Positions 28,052-41,713 of a stretch of DNA of 64,000 bases are shown here, piece after piece (position 1 is the first letter of the stretch; every line of letters begins with the position of its first letter). Origin of the DNA: Candidatus Heimdallarchaeota archaeon (GTDB lineage Archaea; Asgardarchaeota; Heimdallarchaeia; Heimdallarchaeales; Kariarchaeaceae); contig JALWRB010000216.1 in the NCBI GenBank assembly GCA_027077875.1, positions 941 to 64,940 of the forward strand, read 5' to 3'. The notes under the pieces were generated by a model. It saw nothing but the letters and a program-made list of their open reading frames with translations. It made no database searches and was not told the origin of the DNA. The position numbers were made by a program, and so were the translations under genes.

Positions 28052-29185
28052 TTACTTTGCGTAAACTATCTGGTATCTGCTGATGGGTCTGATACCCTTC
28101 TCGAATTTTACCAGTACCTTTCTTGAGCTTCTCTTCCCGAAGCGCTTGTAGATATTACCCACAACTACAGCTCCGTTGTCAGGATAAGTGAAGGTGATGG
28201 TCTTCCCGATAACAGCCTCGCTGTCGAACTCAGGGTTGAGTTGGACAATGAGTTGACTGTTGTTTATATCTCTTCTACTCCTTCTGTGAGAGGAGACAAA
28301 ACCTAGAGCAGTGCCTTTCTCGATAACCGATCTTGGCTTGGACTCATTTGAGACTCCACTCTTCCCTCGGACCTTGAAAGTTCTGAATGACCTCTTGACA
28401 TCCTCGGGAGCGTAGTACTCAATTACCTCTCTTTTCTTCTTCTCGAAGACCTTAACCTCTTTTGTTTCCTTCTGCTTCTTGACTGGTTTCTCGCTCTTTG
28501 CCTTCTTTCCGGTCTTGACAGCCTTCACGGGTTGTGGCGGTGAGGGGATCTCACGAGTAATCTGGTCTGCCATAGACCTGATTTTCTTCCTCTCTGCCTT
28601 CTTCTTCTTCTCCTCTTCACTGAGTTCTTTGGCCTTGACTACCCAAGTCGACCTATTCTCAAGATCTGACTCGTCAATAATCTCAACCTCCTTCTCGACC
28701 TTCTTGACCTGAGCTACCTTCTTCTTTCGAGAGTAGGTTGGCTCGTCATAATCGTCGGGAATAGTCCTCTTAGGAGTGGTCTTCTTCTTAGCCTTCTTCT
28801 TTGGTTTCTCAGCTACTTTTACAGGTTCCTCTACAGGGGTTTCCTCGACCGGTTCCTCGATTGTTTCCTCAGCAGGTTCCTCAATTGGCTCCTCAGTGGG
28901 TTCCTCAATTGACTCTTCAACAGGTTCCTCAACAGGGGTCTCTTTGACTTCCTCCTTCGGTTCCTCTGCTGGAGGCTTGACCTCCTCTACAGGTTCTGCA
29001 ATGGTTGATTCAACAAGCTCTCTGGCGTTATTAATGATCTTAGCCGCGGTTCCTTTACCGATACCGAGTGCGACTACCTCATCAACGGTGGCTGCTGCCA
29101 GCTTTTCTGCGGTGTCTATATTGGCGGAGCCTAGTTTCTCTGCCGTCTTCTTTCCGACACCTTTAACATTTACAACATCTGTCAT
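28052..29185 (-). CDS. Fusion protein: N-terminal tandem helix-hairpin-helix, PEVK-like acidic repeats, a Lys-rich region, and a C-terminal ribosomal protein L35Ae-like domain.
   Basis: HhH: VKGVGKKTAEKL...GIGKGTAAKI. Repeats: EEPxEEPxEEP. C-terminus HRRSRRDINNSQLIVQLNPEFDSEAVIGKTITF...GNIYKRFGKRSSRKVLVKFEKG matches the L35Ae pattern (RRGKHTQNxNQ...GKRV...G.V.R.HGNSG.VRAKF). Confidence 0.6.
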   Translation of the reverse strand: MTDVVNVKGVGKKTAEKLGSANIDTAEKLAAATVDEVVALGIGKGTAAKIINNARELVESTIAEPVEEVKPPAEEPKEEVKETPVEEPVEESIEEPTEEPIEEPAEETIEEPVEETPVEEPVKVAEKPKKKAKKKTTPKRTIPDDYDEPTYSRKKKVAQVKKVEKEVEIIDESDLENRSTWVVKAKELSEEEKKKKAERKKIRSMADQITREIPSPPQPVKAVKTGKKAKSEKPVKKQKETKEVKVFEKKKREVIEYYAPEDVKRSFRTFKVRGKSGVSNESKPRSVIEKGTALGFVSSHRRSRRDINNSQLIVQLNPEFDSEAVIGKTITFTYPDNGAVVVGNIYKRFGKRSSRKVLVKFEKGIRPISRYQIVYAK

Positions 29186-29282
29186 TGCATTCTAGCTCCT
29201 ATGTTCGCTCTCTGATTCCAAGTTCGAGTGAGTTTATTTAAAACTTGATGAAGATTACAGCTCTACACCTACTGTTGTTATC

Positions 29283-30074
29283 CTATTCCTCTCCGAGTCT
29301 CTTCTTGAGGTTATCAATAATCTCGTCTGATCTCATCATCTTCTCCATGAAGGAAGTGGAGATCTCTTCCTGTATTCTCTCGTTCTCTTCCCTTTCCTCC
29401 TTGAGACGCTTCTCAAGATCCTCGACCTTCTTCCTTAGCCTCTCGGTCTCTTCTGAGTCTCCGACATTTCCAACGACCTTCTTTACGATCTCGTCAATTG
29501 TTATCCCAGGTGGAAGCTTCTCTTCCACGAGGAGTTCAAGGGTCTTCTTCTCTTGGTTAAACACACTCTGCATATGTGTCCTCTCATCTTTGAGACGCTC
29601 CTCAAGATCTCTCCTAATGACACCCTCTGATGCCAATTGCTTCTTGACCTCTCTGAGCTGATCAGTAAGTTCTTGGACGTTCTCTTGCTCAATGGTGAGT
29701 GATCTACGTGCATTCTTGGCTGAATTCTCGAGCTTGTCCATTGCTTCATTATACTTCTCGATGAGAAGAGCATAGGAGTTGATGAAGTCCCTGACCATTG
29801 GGTGTATTAGATCAAAGTACTCTTCTATGTCCTCCTCTAGCTGCTTGTGCTCCGAGCTGACGAGTTTCTCCTTGTAGACTGGCTTTACGAGGTATTCAAT
29901 GTCATTGTAAGGATTGTCGTAATCTTTGATATGATCAAAAAGGGTTTTCTTCTTCTTTCCAAACATGTCTATGAGAGAATTGGCCCACAAGTGAAATAAA
30001 CATTTCCCCTCGAAAACTCCCGATTTGGAACCACGTGAAGAGAGACCTCTCCTTTGAGCAACCTTAATAATCAC
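29283..30074 (-). CDS. Coiled-coil hypothetical protein.
   Basis: Long heptad-like E/K/R/L-rich sequence. The true start is probably the internal Met (MFGKKKK, near 29966), which leaves room for divergent promoters. Confidence 0.45.
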   Translation of the reverse strand: MIIKVAQRRGLSSRGSKSGVFEGKCLFHLWANSLIDMFGKKKKTLFDHIKDYDNPYNDIEYLVKPVYKEKLVSSEHKQLEEDIEEYFDLIHPMVRDFINSYALLIEKYNEAMDKLENSAKNARRSLTIEQENVQELTDQLREVKKQLASEGVIRRDLEERLKDERTHMQSVFNQEKKTLELLVEEKLPPGITIDEIVKKVVGNVGDSEETERLRKKVEDLEKRLKEEREENERIQEEISTSFMEKMMRSDEIIDNLKKRLGEE

Positions 30075-30075
30075 C

Positions 30076-30783
30076 GTGCTCCATTATAGTATTAGTAGAA
30101 TGTCCGAGAGCGACAAAAAACCTCCAAAAGGCCTAATCCCCCGGGAGAAGAAATCATCGTATATCCATATCCGAGTGGATCCTGACTTCAAGGACCAGGT
30201 GACCAAGAAGGCCATGGAGGAGGAGATGAATCTGACCAACTTTGTTGTTCTCGCTCTTGAAGAAGCGATCTACGAGAAGGACGTTGAAGAAGAAGAGAAG
30301 GAAGAGGAGGAGGAGGAAGAGGAAGATTTCCTTTTAGAAGAGATACTCACCGCTATGGAGAACCTCGAGCGGAGGATGGAGATTCGATTGGCTACTCTTC
30401 AAGACGCGTTCAACTCGCTAATTGGAAAACTCCTTGACTTCGAGAGGTCTGGTGCCTCCCTCGCTAGAGGTAGAAAGAAGGGCAAAGCGAAGGACAGCGA
30501 CGACGAGGAGAGCTTCGACTTCGAACTGGATAATGTCTTGCAAACAGAGCCAGAGAAACTTATCTACCAGAGAGTTAAGCGGTACATTGAGAGCAAGGGA
30601 AGTGTTGGGCGGCTACCTCCATTCAGCGAGATTGTTGCGCACCTTGAAACGGACAAGAAACTCAAAGAGTACCTCATCGCTCAGGACAAGAACTTTCCAG
30701 GTTGGAAAGATACACTCATCAGGGACGCTATCGACGAGGCAATTGACGAGCTGGGCATCCCAGTGTACGGAGGAATTGACTGA
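30076..30783 (+). CDS. Ribbon-helix-helix (CopG/Arc-like) domain protein with a poly-Glu acidic tract.
   Basis: SYIHIRVDPDFKDQVTKKAMEEEMNLTNFVVLALEEAI fits the RHH beta-alpha-alpha pattern. The stop overlaps the start of the downstream integrase-like gene (TGATG). Confidence 0.55.
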   Translation: MLHYSISRMSESDKKPPKGLIPREKKSSYIHIRVDPDFKDQVTKKAMEEEMNLTNFVVLALEEAIYEKDVEEEEKEEEEEEEEDFLLEEILTAMENLERRMEIRLATLQDAFNSLIGKLLDFERSGASLARGRKKGKAKDSDDEESFDFELDNVLQTEPEKLIYQRVKRYIESKGSVGRLPPFSEIVAHLETDKKLKEYLIAQDKNFPGWKDTLIRDAIDEAIDELGIPVYGGID

Positions 30784-32654
30784 TGGCAAGACGACCGTTC
30801 ATGAGGCGGAAGTCGAACAAAAAGCGTAACAAGGAAGCAATCGATGTCTTCAACCTTCATAATACCCTCCATCCGGGGACAAGAGCCCACTACGTCAACA
30901 TCGTGAAACAGTTCGGTGATTTTCTCCTGCTGCACAAGAAGAGCCTGTGGGATGTCACTCCTATTGATGTGCAGAACTTTCTTAACCAATCAGATGGCGA
31001 TACAAACATCAAGTCGATCCTCCACACCTTCTACCGTGTGCTGATTGAGTCCGAGGAATACGAAAGGGAGAACCCAATCGTACTCTTGAGGAAGAAAGAA
31101 GCGGAGGAACGCAAGCGTAAAAAGGGCCAGGTCAAGGAGGTGTCCGAAGCAGAGAGAGTGATCGCCGGGCTCGACGAGGAAGAGACGAAGGAGATTGAAA
31201 AGAGGGACAAGGCGAAGGTCAAGAAAAGGAGAAAACTCCCCAAGCCAATCATGACAATCGCAGACCTCGAAGAACTCCTCGCAAAGACCCGCCATATTAG
31301 GGAGAGGGCCATCCTCGAACTCCTCTTTGCCACAGGAGCAAGGTTGAAAGAGCTCATTAATCTGAATGTCTCCGATATAGACCTAGAGGGGAAGAAGGTA
31401 CTGTTCTTTGAGTCAAACACACAGATATCTAGGGCGATAGCCCTTCCCAAGCGGACACTTGCTTTCCTCAAGGTTTACGAGCGGTGGAGATTCAGGCAAC
31501 TCTCTCCATCCAACGCGTATTTCATCTCCAAGAGGACCAAAGAGAGGATATCGAGCTCCACAGTCTCGACCTGGCTCTACCGTCTACAACGTGGGAAGAA
31601 CCCCGAATTGAGGTGGACTGCTAATGATTTCAGGAAGAGATCTATTCTTCATCACTACTGGCTAACCAAGGATCTGGCTGCTGTGACCCGTTTCGCTGGT
31701 TTCAAACGACCAGAGGCCACATTGAGGATTATCAATCAGGTGCTTGTGGACAGGGGGATCGAGAGCATTGAGGAGCTCGGGAAATTGCCAGAGTTCGAGG
31801 AGCTCGAGAAGGACCGCAGAAAGGTCTCCCCGACTATCGAGAGCTCGACAAGCATTACCATTAACCTTGATCCGGACGAACTTGAGATGCTCAGGAGATC
31901 GGGGCTCACACCAACTCAGGCGGTTCGAACGATCTTCAGTCTCAAGGACCTCTACGGTGCTGTAGCTCCTGGTGCAGTGGCCGCGCCTGGTGCTGTTGCC
32001 TCCCCCGCTGCGAGACCGGTTGGGAAGTCAAGTGGTGGACCTGGTGGAGGTCCTATGGGCGGACCAGGTGGGGGTCCGGGTGCGATCAAGCCGTTTACTC
32101 CCTCTGCAGGTGGACCCAACCTCGCAGGAGGAGGTGCTCCTAAGCTATCGGGAGGTGGGAGCACACCCAATCTAGCAGGAGGTGGATCCAAACCAGCGTC
32201 CACTCCCAAACCGGTTGCCAAACCGCCACCTATGCGACCGCCTCCACAGAGACCCAGTAGCCCAGGGGGTGGAGGGCAGGCGAACTTCCTCGGTGAACTC
32301 AAGAAGAAACTGGCAGCGAGAAGAGCAGCAGCCGCGGAGGGAGGTGGTGATACCGTCGGACCGAAGGATCACTTTAGCAATGTCAAGATCCTTGACAATG
32401 ACTCGGGTGGTGGAGAGACGGGTGAAAGCGGTCCAAACCTTGGAGGATCTGGTAGTCCAAGTCTCGGAGGTAGCCCAAGTTTGGGTAATAGTCCAAGTCT
32501 TGGTGGTAGTTCTAGCACGTCGAGTGGACCAAGTCTTGGTGGTGGTCCTGGTGGTTCCCCCAGCCTTGGAGCGAAGAAAGAGGGTGGTGGGCCTAGCCTT
32601 GGATCCAAGAAGTCTGGAGGGCCCAGTTTAGGAGCTAAAAAAGAGGACGACTAG
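30783..32654 (+). CDS. Tyrosine-recombinase (XerD/phage integrase)-like protein. Active-site residues appear degenerate. Fused to a roughly 230-aa Gly/Pro/Ser-rich low-complexity tail.
   Basis: N-terminal SAM-like core-binding pattern (AHYVNIVKQFGDFLL, DVTPIDVQNFL). Catalytic-domain box I LFATGARLKELINLNVSDIDL. Box II reads NDFRKRSIL instead of HxLRH, and no Tyr occupies the nucleophile position. The tail carries PPPMRPPPQRP, GGPSLG(A/S)KK repeats and an LGELKKKL motif. Confidence 0.6.
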   Translation: MARRPFMRRKSNKKRNKEAIDVFNLHNTLHPGTRAHYVNIVKQFGDFLLLHKKSLWDVTPIDVQNFLNQSDGDTNIKSILHTFYRVLIESEEYERENPIVLLRKKEAEERKRKKGQVKEVSEAERVIAGLDEEETKEIEKRDKAKVKKRRKLPKPIMTIADLEELLAKTRHIRERAILELLFATGARLKELINLNVSDIDLEGKKVLFFESNTQISRAIALPKRTLAFLKVYERWRFRQLSPSNAYFISKRTKERISSSTVSTWLYRLQRGKNPELRWTANDFRKRSILHHYWLTKDLAAVTRFAGFKRPEATLRIINQVLVDRGIESIEELGKLPEFEELEKDRRKVSPTIESSTSITINLDPDELEMLRRSGLTPTQAVRTIFSLKDLYGAVAPGAVAAPGAVASPAARPVGKSSGGPGGGPMGGPGGGPGAIKPFTPSAGGPNLAGGGAPKLSGGGSTPNLAGGGSKPASTPKPVAKPPPMRPPPQRPSSPGGGGQANFLGELKKKLAARRAAAAEGGGDTVGPKDHFSNVKILDNDSGGGETGESGPNLGGSGSPSLGGSPSLGNSPSLGGSSSTSSGPSLGGGPGGSPSLGAKKEGGGPSLGSKKSGGPSLGAKKEDD

Positions 32655-34221: not shown

Positions 34222-36003
34222 CTACCCCGAACGCCTGAACCATCCTTCAAGTGTACCATGGGAGAATCGTAGTATCGTAGGTCTCCCGTGAGCACAGGTC
34301 CAAGGATTGCTGCACTTCAAGAGATCGTCAAGGACTTTGGAGATTGTGTCATTGTCTACGAAGTACCCTGATCGTATAGAACCATGGCAAGCTAACCTGC
34401 TCACAATATAGTACTGCAACTCGGAGAGAGGAGTGCTCACCACCTTTGCTTCCTCAGAGTCCTTCACGGAAAGCAATATATCTTCGAAGAAGGAGGTGAT
34501 TGACTCAGATGATAACTTCTGATCGAAATAAGTTGGAATTGAGTGGATTAGGACACGGTTATTCACTGTACTCACGTCCATTCCGAACTTGGAGAATTCT
34601 TCCCGATTATTCCTAACTAAGTCGATGATATCAGACCCCATTTCAATCGGTAAGGGATTGAGGAGTTGTTGAGACATTATCATAGAGTCTGCATGTGACT
34701 CGTACTTCTCAAACTTGACCCGCTCGTCACTGGCATGGATATCCATGAGCCAGAGTTCATCTCCAGCATCTATTAGAGCGAATTTTTTCATGATTTGCCC
34801 TAGTACCTTATGTCCATGTGTAGTTCTGCTCTGCCTGCTACCGTGAAACTCTTCGAGGGACATCTGTCTACTGTCAAACTTGGCGCTCTGCTTTTCGCCT
34901 TCATCCTCTACAGATGAGGTTGTGGTTGCTGTGGAAGAGGGCTTAGTTGTGTTGTGGTCGAACTTCGCCTCGAAGCTTCTAGTCCCTTGGAACGTTGGGA
35001 CCTCGGCACCTTCAGACAGGGCTTTCTTGACCAGAATGGAGAGCTCTTCGAGGACAGGGTCATCAGATGCGAACCTGATCTCTGTCTTCTGTGGATGGAC
35101 GTTGTAGTCTACCCAGTGATTCTCACCGCTGATGTCAAGGATAATGACCGGATATGTTCGCTTCAGAAGTTGAGCGCCATAGGACTCCTCAACTGCCTTC
35201 TGGATGTCATTCTGCTTAACTGCTCTGCCATTGACCCTAATGAATTGCATTGACCTATCTTTCTTCGTTAAGATTGGAGCGGAGACATAACCTGATACTT
35301 TCCATCTTCCTGCATCTCCCTCAACTTTTACCAGATTCTTTGCCACCTTCTCTCCAAGGATGTCATACACTGCAGACAGCTGTTCTTCCCTTGCAGGTGA
35401 CTGCACGAGGGTGACCATCTTTCCACCCTTGGTCTCGGTCAGCTCGATGTGTAGATTGTAGTAGGTTAGGGCAATGTGGTGGATCAGATCCACAATCGCC
35501 TTCTTCTCCACACTTGTGGACTTAAGGAATTTACGCCTTGCTGGAATGTTATAGAACAGTCCTACCACCTCAATCTCAGTCCCCGGATTCCTCATTGTGA
35601 CATCCGTCTCCTTCTTCACCTCAGAGCCCTCGATTATTATCTGTCTCCCCTTCTCCTGCTTTCTTGGTCTGCTCTTGCACTTGACCCTGGTTACCGCTGT
35701 AATCGAGGCTAAGGCCTCACCCCTAAATCCCAGTGTACTCACATTGTAGATATTGTCGTCATCAATTTTACTAGAGGAATGAAGTTCGAAAGCGAGAGCA
35801 AGTTGATCTGCTGGAATACCCGCTCCGTTGTCCTTGACCACAATGCGTCCTATGCCACCGTCTTGAATGTTGATAGTCACTCTTGTAGCTCCTGCATCTA
35901 TGGCATTTTCTACAAGCTCTTTGACTATGTTGACGGGCCGTGTAATCACTTCTCCCGCTGCTATCTGGTCAATGACCCTCTGCGGTAACTTTCTAATCTG
36001 CAA
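34222..36003 (-). CDS. mutL: DNA mismatch repair protein MutL, with the endonuclease motif.
   Basis: GHKL ATPase N-terminus IDQIAAGEVITRPVNIVKELVENAIDAGAT. C-terminal DIHASDERVKFE (the DQHAxxExxxxE variant) and CAHGRPT. Confidence 0.9.
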   Translation of the reverse strand: MQIRKLPQRVIDQIAAGEVITRPVNIVKELVENAIDAGATRVTINIQDGGIGRIVVKDNGAGIPADQLALAFELHSSSKIDDDNIYNVSTLGFRGEALASITAVTRVKCKSRPRKQEKGRQIIIEGSEVKKETDVTMRNPGTEIEVVGLFYNIPARRKFLKSTSVEKKAIVDLIHHIALTYYNLHIELTETKGGKMVTLVQSPAREEQLSAVYDILGEKVAKNLVKVEGDAGRWKVSGYVSAPILTKKDRSMQFIRVNGRAVKQNDIQKAVEESYGAQLLKRTYPVIILDISGENHWVDYNVHPQKTEIRFASDDPVLEELSILVKKALSEGAEVPTFQGTRSFEAKFDHNTTKPSSTATTTSSVEDEGEKQSAKFDSRQMSLEEFHGSRQSRTTHGHKVLGQIMKKFALIDAGDELWLMDIHASDERVKFEKYESHADSMIMSQQLLNPLPIEMGSDIIDLVRNNREEFSKFGMDVSTVNNRVLIHSIPTYFDQKLSSESITSFFEDILLSVKDSEEAKVVSTPLSELQYYIVSRLACHGSIRSGYFVDNDTISKVLDDLLKCSNPWTCAHGRPTILRFSHGTLEGWFRRSG

Positions 36004-36037
36004 GACAATGAGAGAATTGACCCGTTCGATATATAGT

Positions 36038-38767
36038 TTAGGATTCGGAGTTCAGGAGGGAGGTGAGGTACTCGAGGATCTCAATTGCCTTTATGGGCGT
36101 GATGGCATTCACGGTCAGATTCCGTAGGGTAGAGAGTACTTCAGTTTCCTCTGGGGTAAAGACGGGTTTAGGGTCAACCATCTTCTTCATTGGCTTCATC
36201 TGGGACAGCTTGTTCTTGGTCTCCTCTGGATCGAAGTCATCACTAAACCAATCGTCGATAGTCCCAAATACACGCTCGACCTCATCGGACCCCGAGACCT
36301 TTTTAGAAATCTTCTCCTCCTCGTTGATGGAGCTCGACTTGCTCTCGAGAAGCGATAGAATAAACCTAGCTCTGAGAATGATCTCAGTAGGAAGACCGGC
36401 TAGTTTTGCGACCTCCACTCCGAAGCTCTTATCTGATGATCCCGGGAAAATTCGATGATCGAATAGCGGTTTCTCCCCGTCAAATCCTATCTTGAAATGG
36501 AAATTCTTGGCGCTCTCAAGAAAACCTTCGAGCTCGGCCAGTTGGTGGAAATGTGTAGCGATCATGGTCAGTGGCTTCGCCTCACTGTTGTGTAGATGCT
36601 CTGCAATTGCCCAAGCAATGGCTAGACCGTCATAGGTGGAGGTTCCCCTACCCAGCTCATCTGCTATGATCAGGGATCTTGTGGTAGAGTTGTTCACCAA
36701 GTTAGCTGCGTCCAGCATCTCGACCATAAATGTTGACTGACCCGCGATAAGGTTGTCGGATGCACCGATTCTGGTGAAGATCCTGTCTACTATTCCGATG
36801 GTGGCTGCAGAACAGGGAATGAAACACCCGATCTGTGCCATTATAACGTTGAGCGCAACTGACCTGAGCAGCGAGCTTTTCCCACTGAAGTTGGGCCCAG
36901 TGATGATGAGTAACCGCTGTTCTTCCTTATCCAAGAGAACATCATTTGGAACATATTCGCCTAGGAAACTTTCAATCACCGGGTGTCTTATCCCGCTGAA
37001 TTCCAGTCTGAACCCGTCATTTATTGTCGGTCTGGTGTACTCATTTGATATAGAGATGAAGGTAAATGCGAGGAGAACATCCAGCTCAGCTATTCCTTTG
37101 GACACATCCTGTAGTCTGTCTACATGCTTTGACAGATCCTTCAAGAAATTCTCATAGAGCGACTGCTCAATCTGTTTGATCTCTATTTCTGCATTCAGGA
37201 TGTTGTACTCCCAGTCTTTGAGTTCATCGGAGATGTATCTCACGACGTTCACCATCGACTGCTTGGTGATGTATGTATCAGGAACCTTTGAGGTGTTGCT
37301 TTTGGTGACCTCTATGAAGTATCCCAGATGGCGGTTCTGTTTGACCTTGAGCGAGGTGATTCCCGTTCTCTGCTTCTCCCTCTCAATGAACCTCTCGATC
37401 CACCGTTCTCCCTCCTTCAGGAGTTCGCGCAGTTCGTCAAGCCTCTCATTGACTCCGGGGGCTATGACGTCCCCATCCGCAACACTCACAGCTGGTTCCG
37501 ATAGGATCATCTTCTGGATGAAGTCTACGATATCTTGGCAGTCTTTGATCTTCTCGAGGAAGGGGATGGGTATTGTGGCTTCGTTCTGTATCTGTTCAAG
37601 CGATGCCCTGATACTAGGGATGACCATGAGGGAGTTTAGTAACCGGATGATCTCACTTGGTTTCGAGACTCCCAATGAAATTCGAGTCCCGAGCCTCTCA
37701 ATGTCAGATATGTGCTCCATCTCACCCCTGATGTGATTTGCAGCAAGCTCGGAACTGATAAACCGATCGACCGTATCGAGCCTTCGATTAATTGTATCAA
37801 CTGATGTCAACGGAGTTCCGATCCACTTCTTAAGTTCCCTGGTACCCATCGGTGTAACCGTCTGATTCAGGAGTTTGAATAGACTGCCCTCCTCGGAGTT
37901 ATCGACCGTGTTATTGAACAGTTCCAGTGACCTGATCACTCCTCGGTCAAGAAGCATTGAGTTCTTCGATTCAAGGATTTGAATCTTGGTGATGTTCGAC
38001 ACCTTCCGTTTCTGTGTATCTTGGAGGTATCTCAGGAGAGCCCCTGCTGCACAAACTCCCAGACTTTGGTCACTCAGACCGAATCCCTTCATGCTCTTCA
38101 CTCCAAAGTGCTCCTCAAGAACCTCCTCGGCCTCTTGAGGATCGAACCAGAACTCTGGAAGAGGGGAAACCGTCTCATGCTCTATTTCTTTACCCCAGAG
38201 TTCAATGAGTGAGTTTCTTTCGCTTTCAGGGAATATCACCTCTACTGGTTGCATCGTGTCCAGAATGAACCTCATCTCTTTGATCTCTTCGGTGGTAGTG
38301 AAATTCCTTGCATAGAATTCCCCGCATGACAAATCAGCAAGGGCCAACCCGTAGGTTTTCCTATCTCTCAAGATCGATGCAATGTAGTTATTATTCTCCG
38401 TGAGAAGCGAGTCCTCGGTCAGGGTTCCCTTGGTGACAATACGTGTGATCCCCCTCTCAACTACTCCCTTTACAGCTTTTGGATCCTCCAATTGGTCAGC
38501 AATTGCTACCTTGTATCCCTTATTCACCAGCTTTCCGACATAGAGATCCACGGACCTAACGGGTACTCCAGCGAGGGGGTGAGCCGTGTCTCTAATCTTA
38601 CGGGAGGTCAAGGTGATGTCGAGCTCTCTGGCTCCAACTTCTGCATCCTCGAAGAAGAGCTCATAAAAATCACCCACCCTGCAGAACAAGATGACATCAT
38701 TGCCGATTTCTTCTTTCATTCTCACCCACTGCCTCATCATGGGGCTCGTGAGATTCTTCCGATCCAT
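36038..38767 (-). CDS. mutS: DNA mismatch repair protein MutS, bacterial MutS1-type.
   Basis: Mismatch-binding domain with GDFYELF. Walker A GPNFSGKSS. DELGRGTSTYDG. Confidence 0.9.
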   Translation of the reverse strand: MDRKNLTSPMMRQWVRMKEEIGNDVILFCRVGDFYELFFEDAEVGARELDITLTSRKIRDTAHPLAGVPVRSVDLYVGKLVNKGYKVAIADQLEDPKAVKGVVERGITRIVTKGTLTEDSLLTENNNYIASILRDRKTYGLALADLSCGEFYARNFTTTEEIKEMRFILDTMQPVEVIFPESERNSLIELWGKEIEHETVSPLPEFWFDPQEAEEVLEEHFGVKSMKGFGLSDQSLGVCAAGALLRYLQDTQKRKVSNITKIQILESKNSMLLDRGVIRSLELFNNTVDNSEEGSLFKLLNQTVTPMGTRELKKWIGTPLTSVDTINRRLDTVDRFISSELAANHIRGEMEHISDIERLGTRISLGVSKPSEIIRLLNSLMVIPSIRASLEQIQNEATIPIPFLEKIKDCQDIVDFIQKMILSEPAVSVADGDVIAPGVNERLDELRELLKEGERWIERFIEREKQRTGITSLKVKQNRHLGYFIEVTKSNTSKVPDTYITKQSMVNVVRYISDELKDWEYNILNAEIEIKQIEQSLYENFLKDLSKHVDRLQDVSKGIAELDVLLAFTFISISNEYTRPTINDGFRLEFSGIRHPVIESFLGEYVPNDVLLDKEEQRLLIITGPNFSGKSSLLRSVALNVIMAQIGCFIPCSAATIGIVDRIFTRIGASDNLIAGQSTFMVEMLDAANLVNNSTTRSLIIADELGRGTSTYDGLAIAWAIAEHLHNSEAKPLTMIATHFHQLAELEGFLESAKNFHFKIGFDGEKPLFDHRIFPGSSDKSFGVEVAKLAGLPTEIILRARFILSLLESKSSSINEEEKISKKVSGSDEVERVFGTIDDWFSDDFDPEETKNKLSQMKPMKKMVDPKPVFTPEETEVLSTLRNLTVNAITPIKAIEILEYLTSLLNSES

Positions 38768-40297: not shown

Positions 40298-41713
40298 GTG
40301 CCGATGGTTACAGTAAATGAGTCCATCTTGGTAAAGGAAGTTACCGAGAACCAAGATAAAATTCTTTCTCTCTTCAAACTCTCCAGTGGGAGAATTGACT
40401 ATGTAGAGAAGTACTCTGAAAAAGGGGATAAAGCAGGGAAAAAGGAGAAGAGGATCTACCTCGAGGTGAAGGTGTTCAATGACAGTAACCAGCTAGCTGG
40501 TATCGTCTGGTACTTCGGGAAGAACAGAGCATACATCCACGACGTGGACAAGCTTATCGAGAGGAAGCAAACCCAGAAGGTCGATATGATTCTGATTTCC
40601 GAAGAGCAAACCACCTCAGCAGGGAAGAGAAAGCTCAAGGAGAATAAAATCACCATCTACAAGAACTTCGAGGGAATCAAGACCTCCAAGACAAAGAGGC
40701 GAAAGAAGAAAAAAGAGAAAGTAGAGATCAAAGAAGTTGACATTAAGGATGACACCGACATGTCCAAGGTGGCTGAATCAGACCTCCTCTCACATGCAGT
40801 TAAGCTTGTGCAGAGGGTAGAACCAGAGATCATCAAGACTGCAACCATCGAGACTGAAGACGTCTTGATCACAGATGTAAAAGGATATTCATCCAACAAG
40901 TCACTCCTCGCAGTGTACAGGACAATCGACAAGAAGAATGTCGGAGTCAAAGAGGTCAGGAACTTCGTCGGAGAAGTGACCGACCCCACCAATATCACCT
41001 ACGGTCTCATCGGACGTGACAAATTTACACCTGCAGCCAAGAAGACCGCTGAGGAAGCTAAGATCATCACGATCTCACTGAAGCAGGAGCAGGAGGGAGA
41101 GGGTGATCCCCTCACTCAGGAACTTGTCCTCAGACTTGTCAATGGAGCGAAGGAAATCCTCACATACAGAGGCTACCATATCATCAATGAGTCTGACAAG
41201 AGGTATGAGAAACTTGTGGCAGGCAGCGAGAAACTCGGAGCCTACATCATAGCTGAGCGGGATGACGATAAGATAATGGCGCTAATTCCTACGGATGAGG
41301 TCGTTAGGGTCGCAACCGTCAGAGGGTTCTACGAGCAGATGAATGAACTTGACATCTCCAACGGGATGATCATTGCCATCAAGAGGTTCACCTACACCGC
41401 CAACCGTGAGTGCAGGATTCTCAAAATATCTGCTCTCAGAAAGAACCATCCGGTCTTTAACATATTCAACCACATGCTTGTACCAGATCATATAGTCATC
41501 CCCACTGCTGAGATAAGGAATGTCCTACGTACGTACAATTGCAAACTCCATCAGCTCCCCAAGATCTACGAGGACGATCCAGCTGTTGTCATGATTGATG
41601 CCAAGGTTGGGAACGTTATAAAGATCGACAGGGGGAACGATAACTATTCCTACCGGTTAGTCATCCGCAAACCTCACCGAAGAGCTATTGGTGAGGAAGA
41701 TGATTCGGATTGA
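40298..41713 (+). CDS. rpoH: RNA polymerase subunit Rpb5/RpoH homolog. Carries the eukaryote-type N-terminal jaw domain and an additional N-terminal extension.
   Basis: C-terminus NHMLVPDHIVIPTAEIRNVLRTYNCKLHQLPKIYEDDPAVVMIDAKVGNVIKIDRGNDNYSYRLVIRK matches RpoH/Rpb5-C (HELVPKH...LP.I...DPV......G.VVKI.R.S.T.G....YRLVV). The preceding roughly 130 aa (EILTYRGYHI ... NIFNHMLVPDH) parallel the yeast Rpb5 N-domain (EMVKDRGYFI ... NITHHELVPKH). Further upstream are duplicated PD-(D/E)xK-like segments and a K-rich linker. Confidence 0.7.
   Translation: MPMVTVNESILVKEVTENQDKILSLFKLSSGRIDYVEKYSEKGDKAGKKEKRIYLEVKVFNDSNQLAGIVWYFGKNRAYIHDVDKLIERKQTQKVDMILISEEQTTSAGKRKLKENKITIYKNFEGIKTSKTKRRKKKKEKVEIKEVDIKDDTDMSKVAESDLLSHAVKLVQRVEPEIIKTATIETEDVLITDVKGYSSNKSLLAVYRTIDKKNVGVKEVRNFVGEVTDPTNITYGLIGRDKFTPAAKKTAEEAKIITISLKQEQEGEGDPLTQELVLRLVNGAKEILTYRGYHIINESDKRYEKLVAGSEKLGAYIIAERDDDKIMALIPTDEVVRVATVRGFYEQMNELDISNGMIIAIKRFTYTANRECRILKISALRKNHPVFNIFNHMLVPDHIVIPTAEIRNVLRTYNCKLHQLPKIYEDDPAVVMIDAKVGNVIKIDRGNDNYSYRLVIRKPHRRAIGEEDDSD

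Follow-up and report, generated by a model that had tools for sequence, protein, structure and literature searches.

The canonical archaeal form of eL33 (L35Ae; Pfam accession PF01247), a protein of the large ribosomal subunit, stands alone and is 80–100 aa long. In yeast, eL33 is an essential 60S protein of the dII/dVI cluster that binds domain II of the 25S rRNA and touches expansion segment (ES) 7, domain VI and ES39; loss of these contacts blocks early 60S maturation, and the protein is mutated in Diamond-Blackfan anaemia (PMC9700599). We analysed a 64,000-nucleotide stretch of DNA (hereafter the window) from contig JALWRB010000216.1 of a Candidatus Heimdallarchaeota archaeon, in which a gene on the minus strand (28052..29185) encodes a 377-aa protein that joins a helix-hairpin-helix (HhH) domain, a long linker and an eL33-like domain. 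With a probability of roughly 55%, we read this protein as the eL33 large-subunit ribosomal protein of a Heimdallarchaeia clade, equipped with a long N-terminal appendage. The identities of its domains, their homology, the disorder profile and the clade-wide conservation of the architecture are established in the following sections.

The setting of eL33 on the ribosome gives this architecture its context. Eukaryotic eL33 helps lock ES7 and ES39 onto the ribosome core. Penev et al. describe ES39 as adjoining uL13, eL14 and 'aL33', with an unpaired segment of the eukaryotic ES39 that touches ES7 and aL33 (PMC7594248, bioRxiv version). ES39 measures 115–132 nt in Heimdallarchaeota versus 45 nt in Pyrococcus, and Asgard archaea are the only prokaryotes reported to have a supersized ES39 (PMC7594248). 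A published compilation of ribosomal proteins scores eL33 as '+' in Loki- and Thorarchaeota and lists it as 'distribution unknown' in Heimdallarchaeota (PMC9932298, Table 1).

An eL33-like barrel behind a helix-hairpin-helix arm

The gene begins with ATG and ends with a stop codon at 28052-28054, and its translation matches the one quoted in the initial annotation of this locus. From the N- to the C-terminus, the protein consists of an (HhH)2 domain, a disordered linker with an xEEP array, a conserved middle block, a basic linker and a six-stranded barrel. A database search recovered nine full-length orthologs with 36–97% identity, one of which is labelled Candidatus Heimdallarchaeota. Their alignment contains three conserved blocks, namely the HhH domain, the middle block (W181 ... 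ITREIP..PQPVKA) and the last ~100 residues.

The C-terminal part (residues 281–377; 28055..28345, minus strand) comprises a pre-barrel segment (SKPR...) and the six-stranded beta-barrel, whose hidden Markov model (HMM) core spans residues 295–367 (28085-28303, minus strand). As a single sequence, this domain stays below the thresholds of the relevant families, with 13.1 bits against the gathering cutoff of 27 for PF01247 and 26.7 bits against a cutoff of 85 for NCBIfam PRK04337, and its best PDB match has an E-value of 0.04. The orthologs also fall under the PF01247 cutoff (21–25 bits). The L35Ae-like domain proposed in the initial annotation thus needed testing, and profile methods and fold comparison bear it out where the single sequence remains sub-threshold. 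All 22 matches (E ≤ 10) of a family profile of the last 98 residues against the PDB are eL33/L35Ae proteins, the best being a Pyrococcus furiosus protein (E = 8.7e-7; residues 5–80 of an 87-aa chain). An hhalign comparison with 18 stand-alone L35Ae proteins gave a probability of 99.4% (E = 9.9e-22; 82 columns, 27% identity). In the reverse direction, an HMM built from six stand-alone L35Ae proteins matched residues 297–367 with 42 bits, which is its sole match in the six frames of the window.

Structure prediction led to the same family. AlphaFold2 modelled the barrel domain with six strands and a predicted local distance difference test (pLDDT) score of 83.4, and the barrel reaches about 90 in the full-length model. 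The best 50 Foldseek matches in the PDB are all ribosome entries, and the chains shared with the profile search are eL33, with TM-scores of 0.63–0.82 (for example, P. furiosus 9qf4_Bc with TM 0.73/0.82 and a root-mean-square deviation of 2.0 Å, and T. kodakarensis 6skg_Bf). The initial annotation had regarded a better match to Gar1 or another barrel family as grounds for abandoning L35Ae. No such family appears in the Pfam scan (E ≤ 10), the PDB profile search (E ≤ 10) or the best 50 Foldseek matches; L35Ae is never outscored by sequence or fold, and these lists rule out Gar1 or another barrel as the identity of the domain. The C-terminal barrel is thus homologous to eL33/L35Ae by sequence and fold.

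Archaeal eL33 (P. furiosus 1SQR, 4V6U chain Bc and 9QF4 chain Bc) aligns with the C-terminal 85 residues over their full length; the two have the same six-stranded barrel and share the basic SxRRSxR strand-loop as well as the G...G...F core. A 22-residue eL33 signature has been defined in yeast (G69..P90; G-x5-H-G-x2-G-x-V-x3-F), in which G69 and G76 are functionally critical (PMC9700599). The invariant positions of the barrel in the window family are RRSxR, G343, F349-G350-K351 and F361; G343, G350 and F361 belong to the signature, and the counterparts of the glycines critical in yeast are among the invariant residues. The window protein differs from archaeal eL33 in having FG for HG, with F349 in place of the histidine, in a loop after this motif that is two residues longer, and in the approximately 280 residues that precede the barrel.

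Eukaryotic eL33 (RPL35A or yeast Rpl33) is a member of the same family that was found by both profile and fold searches, and it is likewise extended at the N-terminus (the matched chains include a Drosophila protein of 157 aa and trypanosomatid proteins of 125–144 aa). Unlike in the window protein, these extensions are 10–60 aa long and contain no folded domain and no HhH. The similarity of the window family to eukaryotic eL33 (E = 1e-3 to 1e-4) is also below that to archaeal eL33 (1e-6).

The N-terminal (HhH)2 domain occupies residues 3–56 (29018..29179, minus strand) and has the hairpins GVG and GIG. It is matched by positions 3–57 of the 57-position Pfam model HHH_5 (PF14520; E = 1.3e-10, 42.1 bits against a cutoff of 27) with both hairpins covered, so that the tandem HhH module recognised in the initial annotation stands. 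The AlphaFold2 model has a pLDDT of about 90 in this region, with helices at residues 12–20, 26–31, 34–39 and 44–62. HhH modules classically bind DNA, and (HhH)2 units bind duplex nucleic acids without sequence specificity. The nearest named relatives of the domain are the N-terminal domains of RadA/Rad51 (TIGR02236, residues 2–58; 1PZN, residues 37–92). Relative to the RadA/Rad51 (HhH)2 domain, the window protein matches HHH_5 over the full length of the model, whereas it lacks the recombinase ATPase core and has the module joined to a ribosomal-protein domain instead.

The linker as a whole (residues 57–280, about 225 aa) is made up of four parts. The first is a disordered acidic segment (residues 64–131; 28793..28996, minus strand) with an AlphaFold2 pLDDT below 50 (about 35). 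It contains an array of xEEP tetrapeptides that Tandem Repeats Finder resolves as 9.4 copies of a 12-bp unit (28821-28936), corresponding to roughly 40–60 aa; seven EEP and eleven [VIPAT]EE[PTSV] motifs lie within residues 66–121, and residues 61–125 hold 26 acidic (D+E) versus 4 basic (K+R) residues. A Lys-rich segment of mixed charge follows (residues 132–180; 28646..28792, minus strand; pLDDT 52–66). The third part is the conserved middle block (residues 181–225; 28511..28645, minus strand), which is defined by W181, a helix at about residues 190–207 and the ITREIP..PQPVKA motif. The basic linker (residues 226–280; 28346..28510, minus strand) comes last, with 19 K+R versus 8 D+E and a pLDDT of about 50–56.

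These parts differ in how they are conserved. A net-acidic linker is confined to the window protein and its 97%-identical ortholog P0001; the charges are about equal in the ortholog P0002, and the linker is net-basic in the other orthologs. The initial annotation had described a PEVK-like linker of roughly 200 aa of EEPxEEP repeats followed by a Lys-rich stretch. An acidic repeat and a Lys-rich part do exist, but the repeat makes up only ~40–60 aa of the ~225-aa linker. With about nine copies of a 12-bp unit it is not a long Pro/Glu/Val/Lys tandem array of the PEVK type, and 'PEVK-like' overstates what is a short, lineage-specific xEEP array absent from orthologs beyond P0001. Residues 151–180 are 20–47% identical in orthologs more distant than P0002. 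The middle block is 49–80% identical in orthologs other than P0001 at full alignment coverage, and its residues W181, L188, E191, E192, R199, I209, T210, R211, P214 and K221 are invariant. Block-mean pLDDT is 79–93 over residues 181–220, where DSSP assigns a helix to residues 190–207, and comparisons of the block with PDB chains and Pfam families gave no match. Among orthologs beyond P0001 and P0002, identity to the window protein is 44–64% in the HhH domain, 49–71% in the middle block and 43–53% in the barrel, compared with 26–36% in the variable linker and 29–49% in the basic linker.

The distribution of the fusion bears on whether it could be an artefact, either a chance reading frame or two adjacent genes, for an HhH protein and for rpl35ae, that an error in sequencing or assembly has joined. 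The window protein has an identical sequence and an unbroken frame on independent ENA and Logan contigs. The conserved middle block sits between the two domains. Following the suggestion in the initial annotation that related genomes be searched for orthologous fusions, we found the same architecture in about 30 sequences with 36–97% identity from four data sources (independent NCBI, JGI, ENA and Logan assemblies), which form 18–21 clusters at 50% identity. An artefact is thus vanishingly improbable, and the ortholog set refutes it.

Three extended L35Ae-like forms in Heimdallarchaeia

We refer to the architecture of the window protein, an (HhH)2 domain followed by a long linker with the middle block and the barrel, as type A. 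The fusion is found in all relatives within the clade. A HMMER search of 1.84 billion representative sequences with the barrel profile returned 52 proteins at E ≤ 1e-3. Those at E ≤ 1e-10 (21 proteins, 18 of them at E ≤ 1e-30) are full-length members and fragments of type A, the complete ones being 308–605 aa long. The number of (HhH)2 modules per member is one, two or four. Named members belong to Candidatus Kariarchaeaceae or are labelled 'Heimdallarchaeota archaeon'. NCBI calls type A proteins 'helix-hairpin-helix domain-containing protein' or 'hypothetical protein', while some are named 'ribosomal protein L35AE/L33A / predicted flap endonuclease-1-like nuclease' by JGI, whose automated annotation had thus already recorded both COG matches. 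Our literature search found no paper that combines HhH with L35Ae, none on Asgard eL33 beyond one table and none that cites the assembly accessions. What is new is an eL33-family protein with an unprecedented, clade-conserved N-terminal HhH arm, one of three extended eL33 architectures in Heimdallarchaeia.

The other two forms share the barrel. Type B consists of an (HhH)2 domain, a Lys-rich linker and the barrel (203–282 aa; for example, MHA1399954.1 from Heimdallarchaeaceae). Type C consists of a histone-H1-like tail rich in Lys, Thr, Ala and Pro followed by the barrel (104–212 aa; >45 clusters at 90% identity); several members bear a Heimdallarchaeota or Asgard group label, and some go by 'ribosomal protein L35AE/L33A' in the JGI annotation. 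In all three types the barrel lies at the extreme C-terminus behind a basic, low-complexity N-terminal extension and has a loop insertion past the HG/FG motif. Type B resembles type A in its N-terminal (HhH)2 domain and type C has no HhH, while both lack the middle block, differ in synteny and are only 25–27% identical to the window family in the barrel.

A word-indexed search for a canonical Heimdall L35Ae with the stand-alone L35Ae profile was uninformative, as it matched only DPANN-type and microsporidian proteins, and a species-genome scan added one Heimdall locus and one weak partial proteobacterial match. Two candidate relatives were rejected. P0040, a stand-alone protein of 91 aa, was considered as a split version of the fusion; the gene upstream of it encodes a membrane protein, and 0 of 7 proteins tested from its locus (L016) match the window. 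A 458-aa HHH_5 protein on a Heimdallarchaeaceae contig (L013, 2784-4160, plus strand), ~3 kb upstream of a type B gene, is not a type A copy, since it lacks L35Ae and its (HhH)2 is C-terminal. This protein also contains repeated 'PTGVP[IV][KR]EAKV' motifs. Separately, two different assemblies (L006 and L008) have paired genes for ESCRT-II and Vps4 some 3–5 kb away from a type C gene.

The existence of three forms raises the question of whether type A is the eL33 of its lineage or a paralog that has left the mature ribosome, acting as a biogenesis placeholder that briefly fills the eL33 site of pre-50S particles (the part played by Rlp24 for eL24 in eukaryotes) or as an extra-ribosomal RNA binder while the genuine eL33 is encoded elsewhere. 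Assembly factors can mimic ribosomal proteins specific to archaea and eukaryotes and take their sites (PMC9932298); such factors (Rlp24, Sas10) likewise contain a ribosomal-protein fold inside a larger protein, though the window protein has no homology to them. A paralog would also be in keeping with the presence of three very divergent Heimdall-labelled L35Ae-like forms, with the change of HG to FG and with the absence of ribosomal-protein synteny. Duplication does occur, as a metagenome-assembled genome with the locus-tag prefix ACTSSH contains two distinct type C genes (P0220, ACTSSH_07490, and P0223, ACTSSH_07640) on separate ~2.9-kb contigs, a pair that stems either from a recent duplication or from a bin of mixed strains.

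Set against this are the distribution and the divergence of the forms. No two of them were seen together, and each locus has one L35Ae-like open reading frame: a loci-level scan of the 64-kb window and 25 related loci (L001–L015, L019–L025; L004, L005, L010 and L011, which duplicate the window locus exactly or nearly so, are counted among them) found no second one. The four NCBI assemblies identified with type A (GCA_024278115.1, GCA_027001445.1, GCA_048061815.1 and JACZSS01) and the three with type C (GCA_018238155.1, GCA_018238125.1 and GCA_019894765.1) do not overlap, a comparison with too few assemblies (n = 7) to be conclusive. Type A and type C contigs also occur in JGI samples with near-adjacent identifiers (Ga0114931 and Ga0114923), which is uninformative about residence in the same genome. 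Named members sort by family, with type A in Kariarchaeaceae and type B in Heimdallarchaeaceae, which suggests one form per lineage.

A neofunctionalised paralog should, in addition, lie further from canonical L35Ae than the other forms do. As judged by profile comparisons, the type A barrel is no more divergent than those of types B and C: hhalign E-values against canonical L35Ae are 1e-21 for type A, 2.6e-16 for type B and 1e-25 for type C, a canonical-L35Ae HMM scores them at 42–53, 34–36 and 37–40 bits, respectively, and the best PDB matches of all three reach 32–36 bits. That type A is no further from canonical L35Ae than B or C favours its being the lineage's own eL33, and the independent name 'ribosomal protein L35AE/L33A' from the JGI pipeline counts on the same side. 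So do the presence of the fusion throughout the clade, the invariance of the glycines that are critical in yeast and the N-terminal position of the extension in every Heimdall form, as in eukaryotic eL33. The 'unknown' entry for eL33 in the published Heimdallarchaeota table is likewise expected if the Heimdall protein scores 13–25 bits, under the Pfam cutoff of 27. We thus regard a paralog that is absent from the mature ribosome as unlikely.

A different role is suggested by the N-terminal half, since HhH and an H1-like Lys-rich linker could bind DNA in a chromatin or nucleoid protein whose barrel is a generic module without a ribosomal role. The HhH domain is most like the double-stranded-DNA-binding N-terminal domain of RadA/Rad51 and is present in one to four modules per protein, JGI labels one ortholog 'histone H1/5', the tails of type C match the H1-like family PF07382, and DNA-related genes (an XPB-like helicase, a recombinase-like protein and MutS/MutL) lie nearby. 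Yet the barrel is kept at 43–53% identity where the variable linker falls to 26–36%, its eL33-specific motifs are retained, and it matches eL33 alone by sequence and fold, whereas a generic module need not keep an rRNA-contact signature. The linker of the window protein is moreover net acidic over residues 61–125, which hardly suits a DNA binder of the H1 kind. A purely chromatin-bound protein therefore seems quite improbable.

Several observations nonetheless weigh against identifying type A as the clade's eL33. The loci-level scan leaves room for a second L35Ae, canonical or type C-like, that may be encoded elsewhere in the genome. The signature histidine of the HG motif is a phenylalanine in all type A sequences aligned. 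The fusion gene lies outside ribosomal-protein clusters, with no translation gene among its conserved neighbours. Types A, B and C are only 21–27% identical to one another, about the same distance as to DPANN-type L35Ae, and they are jointly monophyletic in 2 of 100 neighbour-joining bootstraps of the barrel tree, in which the relationships of the three forms to canonical L35Ae come out without support. Such divergence is unusual for orthologous ribosomal proteins within one class and is compatible with an old paralogy. Finally, the variable HhH copy number and the classical DNA binding of HhH would suit a chromatin protein. The initial annotation had offered two roles, a nonribosomal nucleic-acid binder and a ribosomal protein with a long surface extension, and had named a sole L35Ae gene fused in all relatives, simply the ribosomal protein of the lineage with an extension, among the outcomes that would refute it; the evidence leans towards this ribosomal protein and away from the nonribosomal binder.

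Genomic neighbourhood

The window is ordinary chromosome. Its genes encode, among others, gamma-glutamyltranspeptidase, an XPB-like helicase, CorA, MutS, MutL, Orc1/Cdc6, Lon, iPGM and a P-type ATPase, and tRNA and Rfam scans of the window gave no matches. The neighbourhood of the fusion gene is kept down to orthologs of about 45% identity and includes a coiled-coil protein, a divergent 235-aa gene and a ~620-aa recombinase-like gene, with CorA and the XPB-like helicase downstream.

A 97-bp intergenic region (29186..29282, minus strand) lies directly upstream of the fusion gene. Read by eye, it contains a TATA-like TTTTAAATAAA at 29233-29243 and a GGAG at about 29196–29199, 9 nt ahead of the ATG, which suggests that the fusion gene may have its own promoter; a similar CAATTTTAAA element is found upstream of the gene in two related loci (L002 and L012). 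The next gene in the same direction (29283..30074, minus strand) encodes the coiled-coil protein of ~230 aa, and the two form a conserved gene pair: of the type A loci long enough to show it, L001, L002, L009, L012 and L026/L027 have the coiled-coil gene directly upstream and co-directional. The coiled-coil protein is 52–55% identical to the window copy in L001, L002, L009 and L012 (BLAST), and searches of Pfam and the PDB gave no match for it.

The 235-aa protein encoded at 30076-30783 (plus strand) contains an acidic run (about 17 Glu/Asp residues), and its N-terminus weakly resembles NikA/RHH (E = 0.03), beyond which no family match was found. It is 38–42% identical in relatives, where its gene likewise adjoins the recombinase-like gene (30783-32654, plus strand). 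The latter encodes 623 aa with a Phage_integrase tyrosine-recombinase domain at residues 160–313 and a ~250-aa Gly/Pro/Ser-rich tail with GGxxPSLG repeats. Its product is 39–47% identical in L002 and L009, and a gene for 612–618 aa occupies the same position in L026/L027. Distant relatives keep the recombinase-like gene in synteny with the fusion gene, so that it looks like a conserved chromosomal gene and not a mobile-element integrase.

Two further loci in the window are worth recording. At 34222-38767 (minus strand), MutL (593 aa) and MutS (909 aa, domains I–V) form a bacterial-type mismatch repair pair that is kept in L026/L027. At 40298-41713 (plus strand), a 471-aa protein with a 452-aa ortholog in L009 has an Rpb5 C-terminal domain (PF01191) at residues 387–452 (E = 1e-19), preceded by restriction-endonuclease-like matches in its N-terminal part (NA-iREase1 at residues 76–122 and Mrr_cat at residues 212–260). 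Archaeal RpoH/Rpo5 normally consists of the ~80-aa C-domain only, and the N-terminal 'jaw' domain of eukaryotic Rpb5 has a restriction-endonuclease-like fold; the 471-aa product could be a full-length Rpb5-like subunit. A protein of this type is not described in a 2026 paper on the small subunits of archaeal RNA polymerase (PMC13257274).

Candidate ligands of the arm

If the window protein is the eL33 of its clade, the barrel would dock at the canonical eL33 site in domains II/VI of the 23S rRNA, beside ES7 and ES39. Its incorporation into the ribosome, its docking at this site and what the HhH arm binds are our inferences. The ~280 residues that precede the barrel would reach out from the solvent-facing side as a flexible and largely basic tether with one conserved helix. 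Since the barrel is an eL33 homolog, eL33 touches ES7 and ES39 in eukaryotic ribosomes, and Heimdallarchaeota have a supersized ES39, the arm may bind ES39. Most likely the (HhH)2 tip would then grip the long helices of the enlarged ES39, stabilising or organising that rRNA. DNA would be the alternative ligand of the tip, in which case the arm would anchor the ribosome to the nucleoid. A ribosome whose eL33 has a ~300-residue arm with one to four HhH modules, and which thereby grips ES39 or ties its large subunit to DNA in a form of chromosome or transcription coupling, is a tentative proposal that we consider possible and on the whole doubtful.

Heimdallarchaeia are among the archaea closest to eukaryotes, and the fusion bears on the joint origin of eukaryotic ribosomal-protein extensions and rRNA expansion segments. 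Because type A proteins do not reach the Pfam and NCBIfam cutoffs, marker-gene and completeness pipelines will count these genomes as lacking eL33. If the fusion is the Heimdall eL33, it would fill the 'unknown' cell in published ribosomal-protein tables (PMC9932298) and would mean that archaea, too, evolved large ribosomal-protein appendages beside an expansion segment. An arm that binds either ES39 or DNA would be a kind of ribosomal appendage unseen in any solved ribosome, and one that grips ES39 would provide a prokaryotic case of the co-evolution of ribosomal-protein extension and rRNA expansion, as in eukaryotes.

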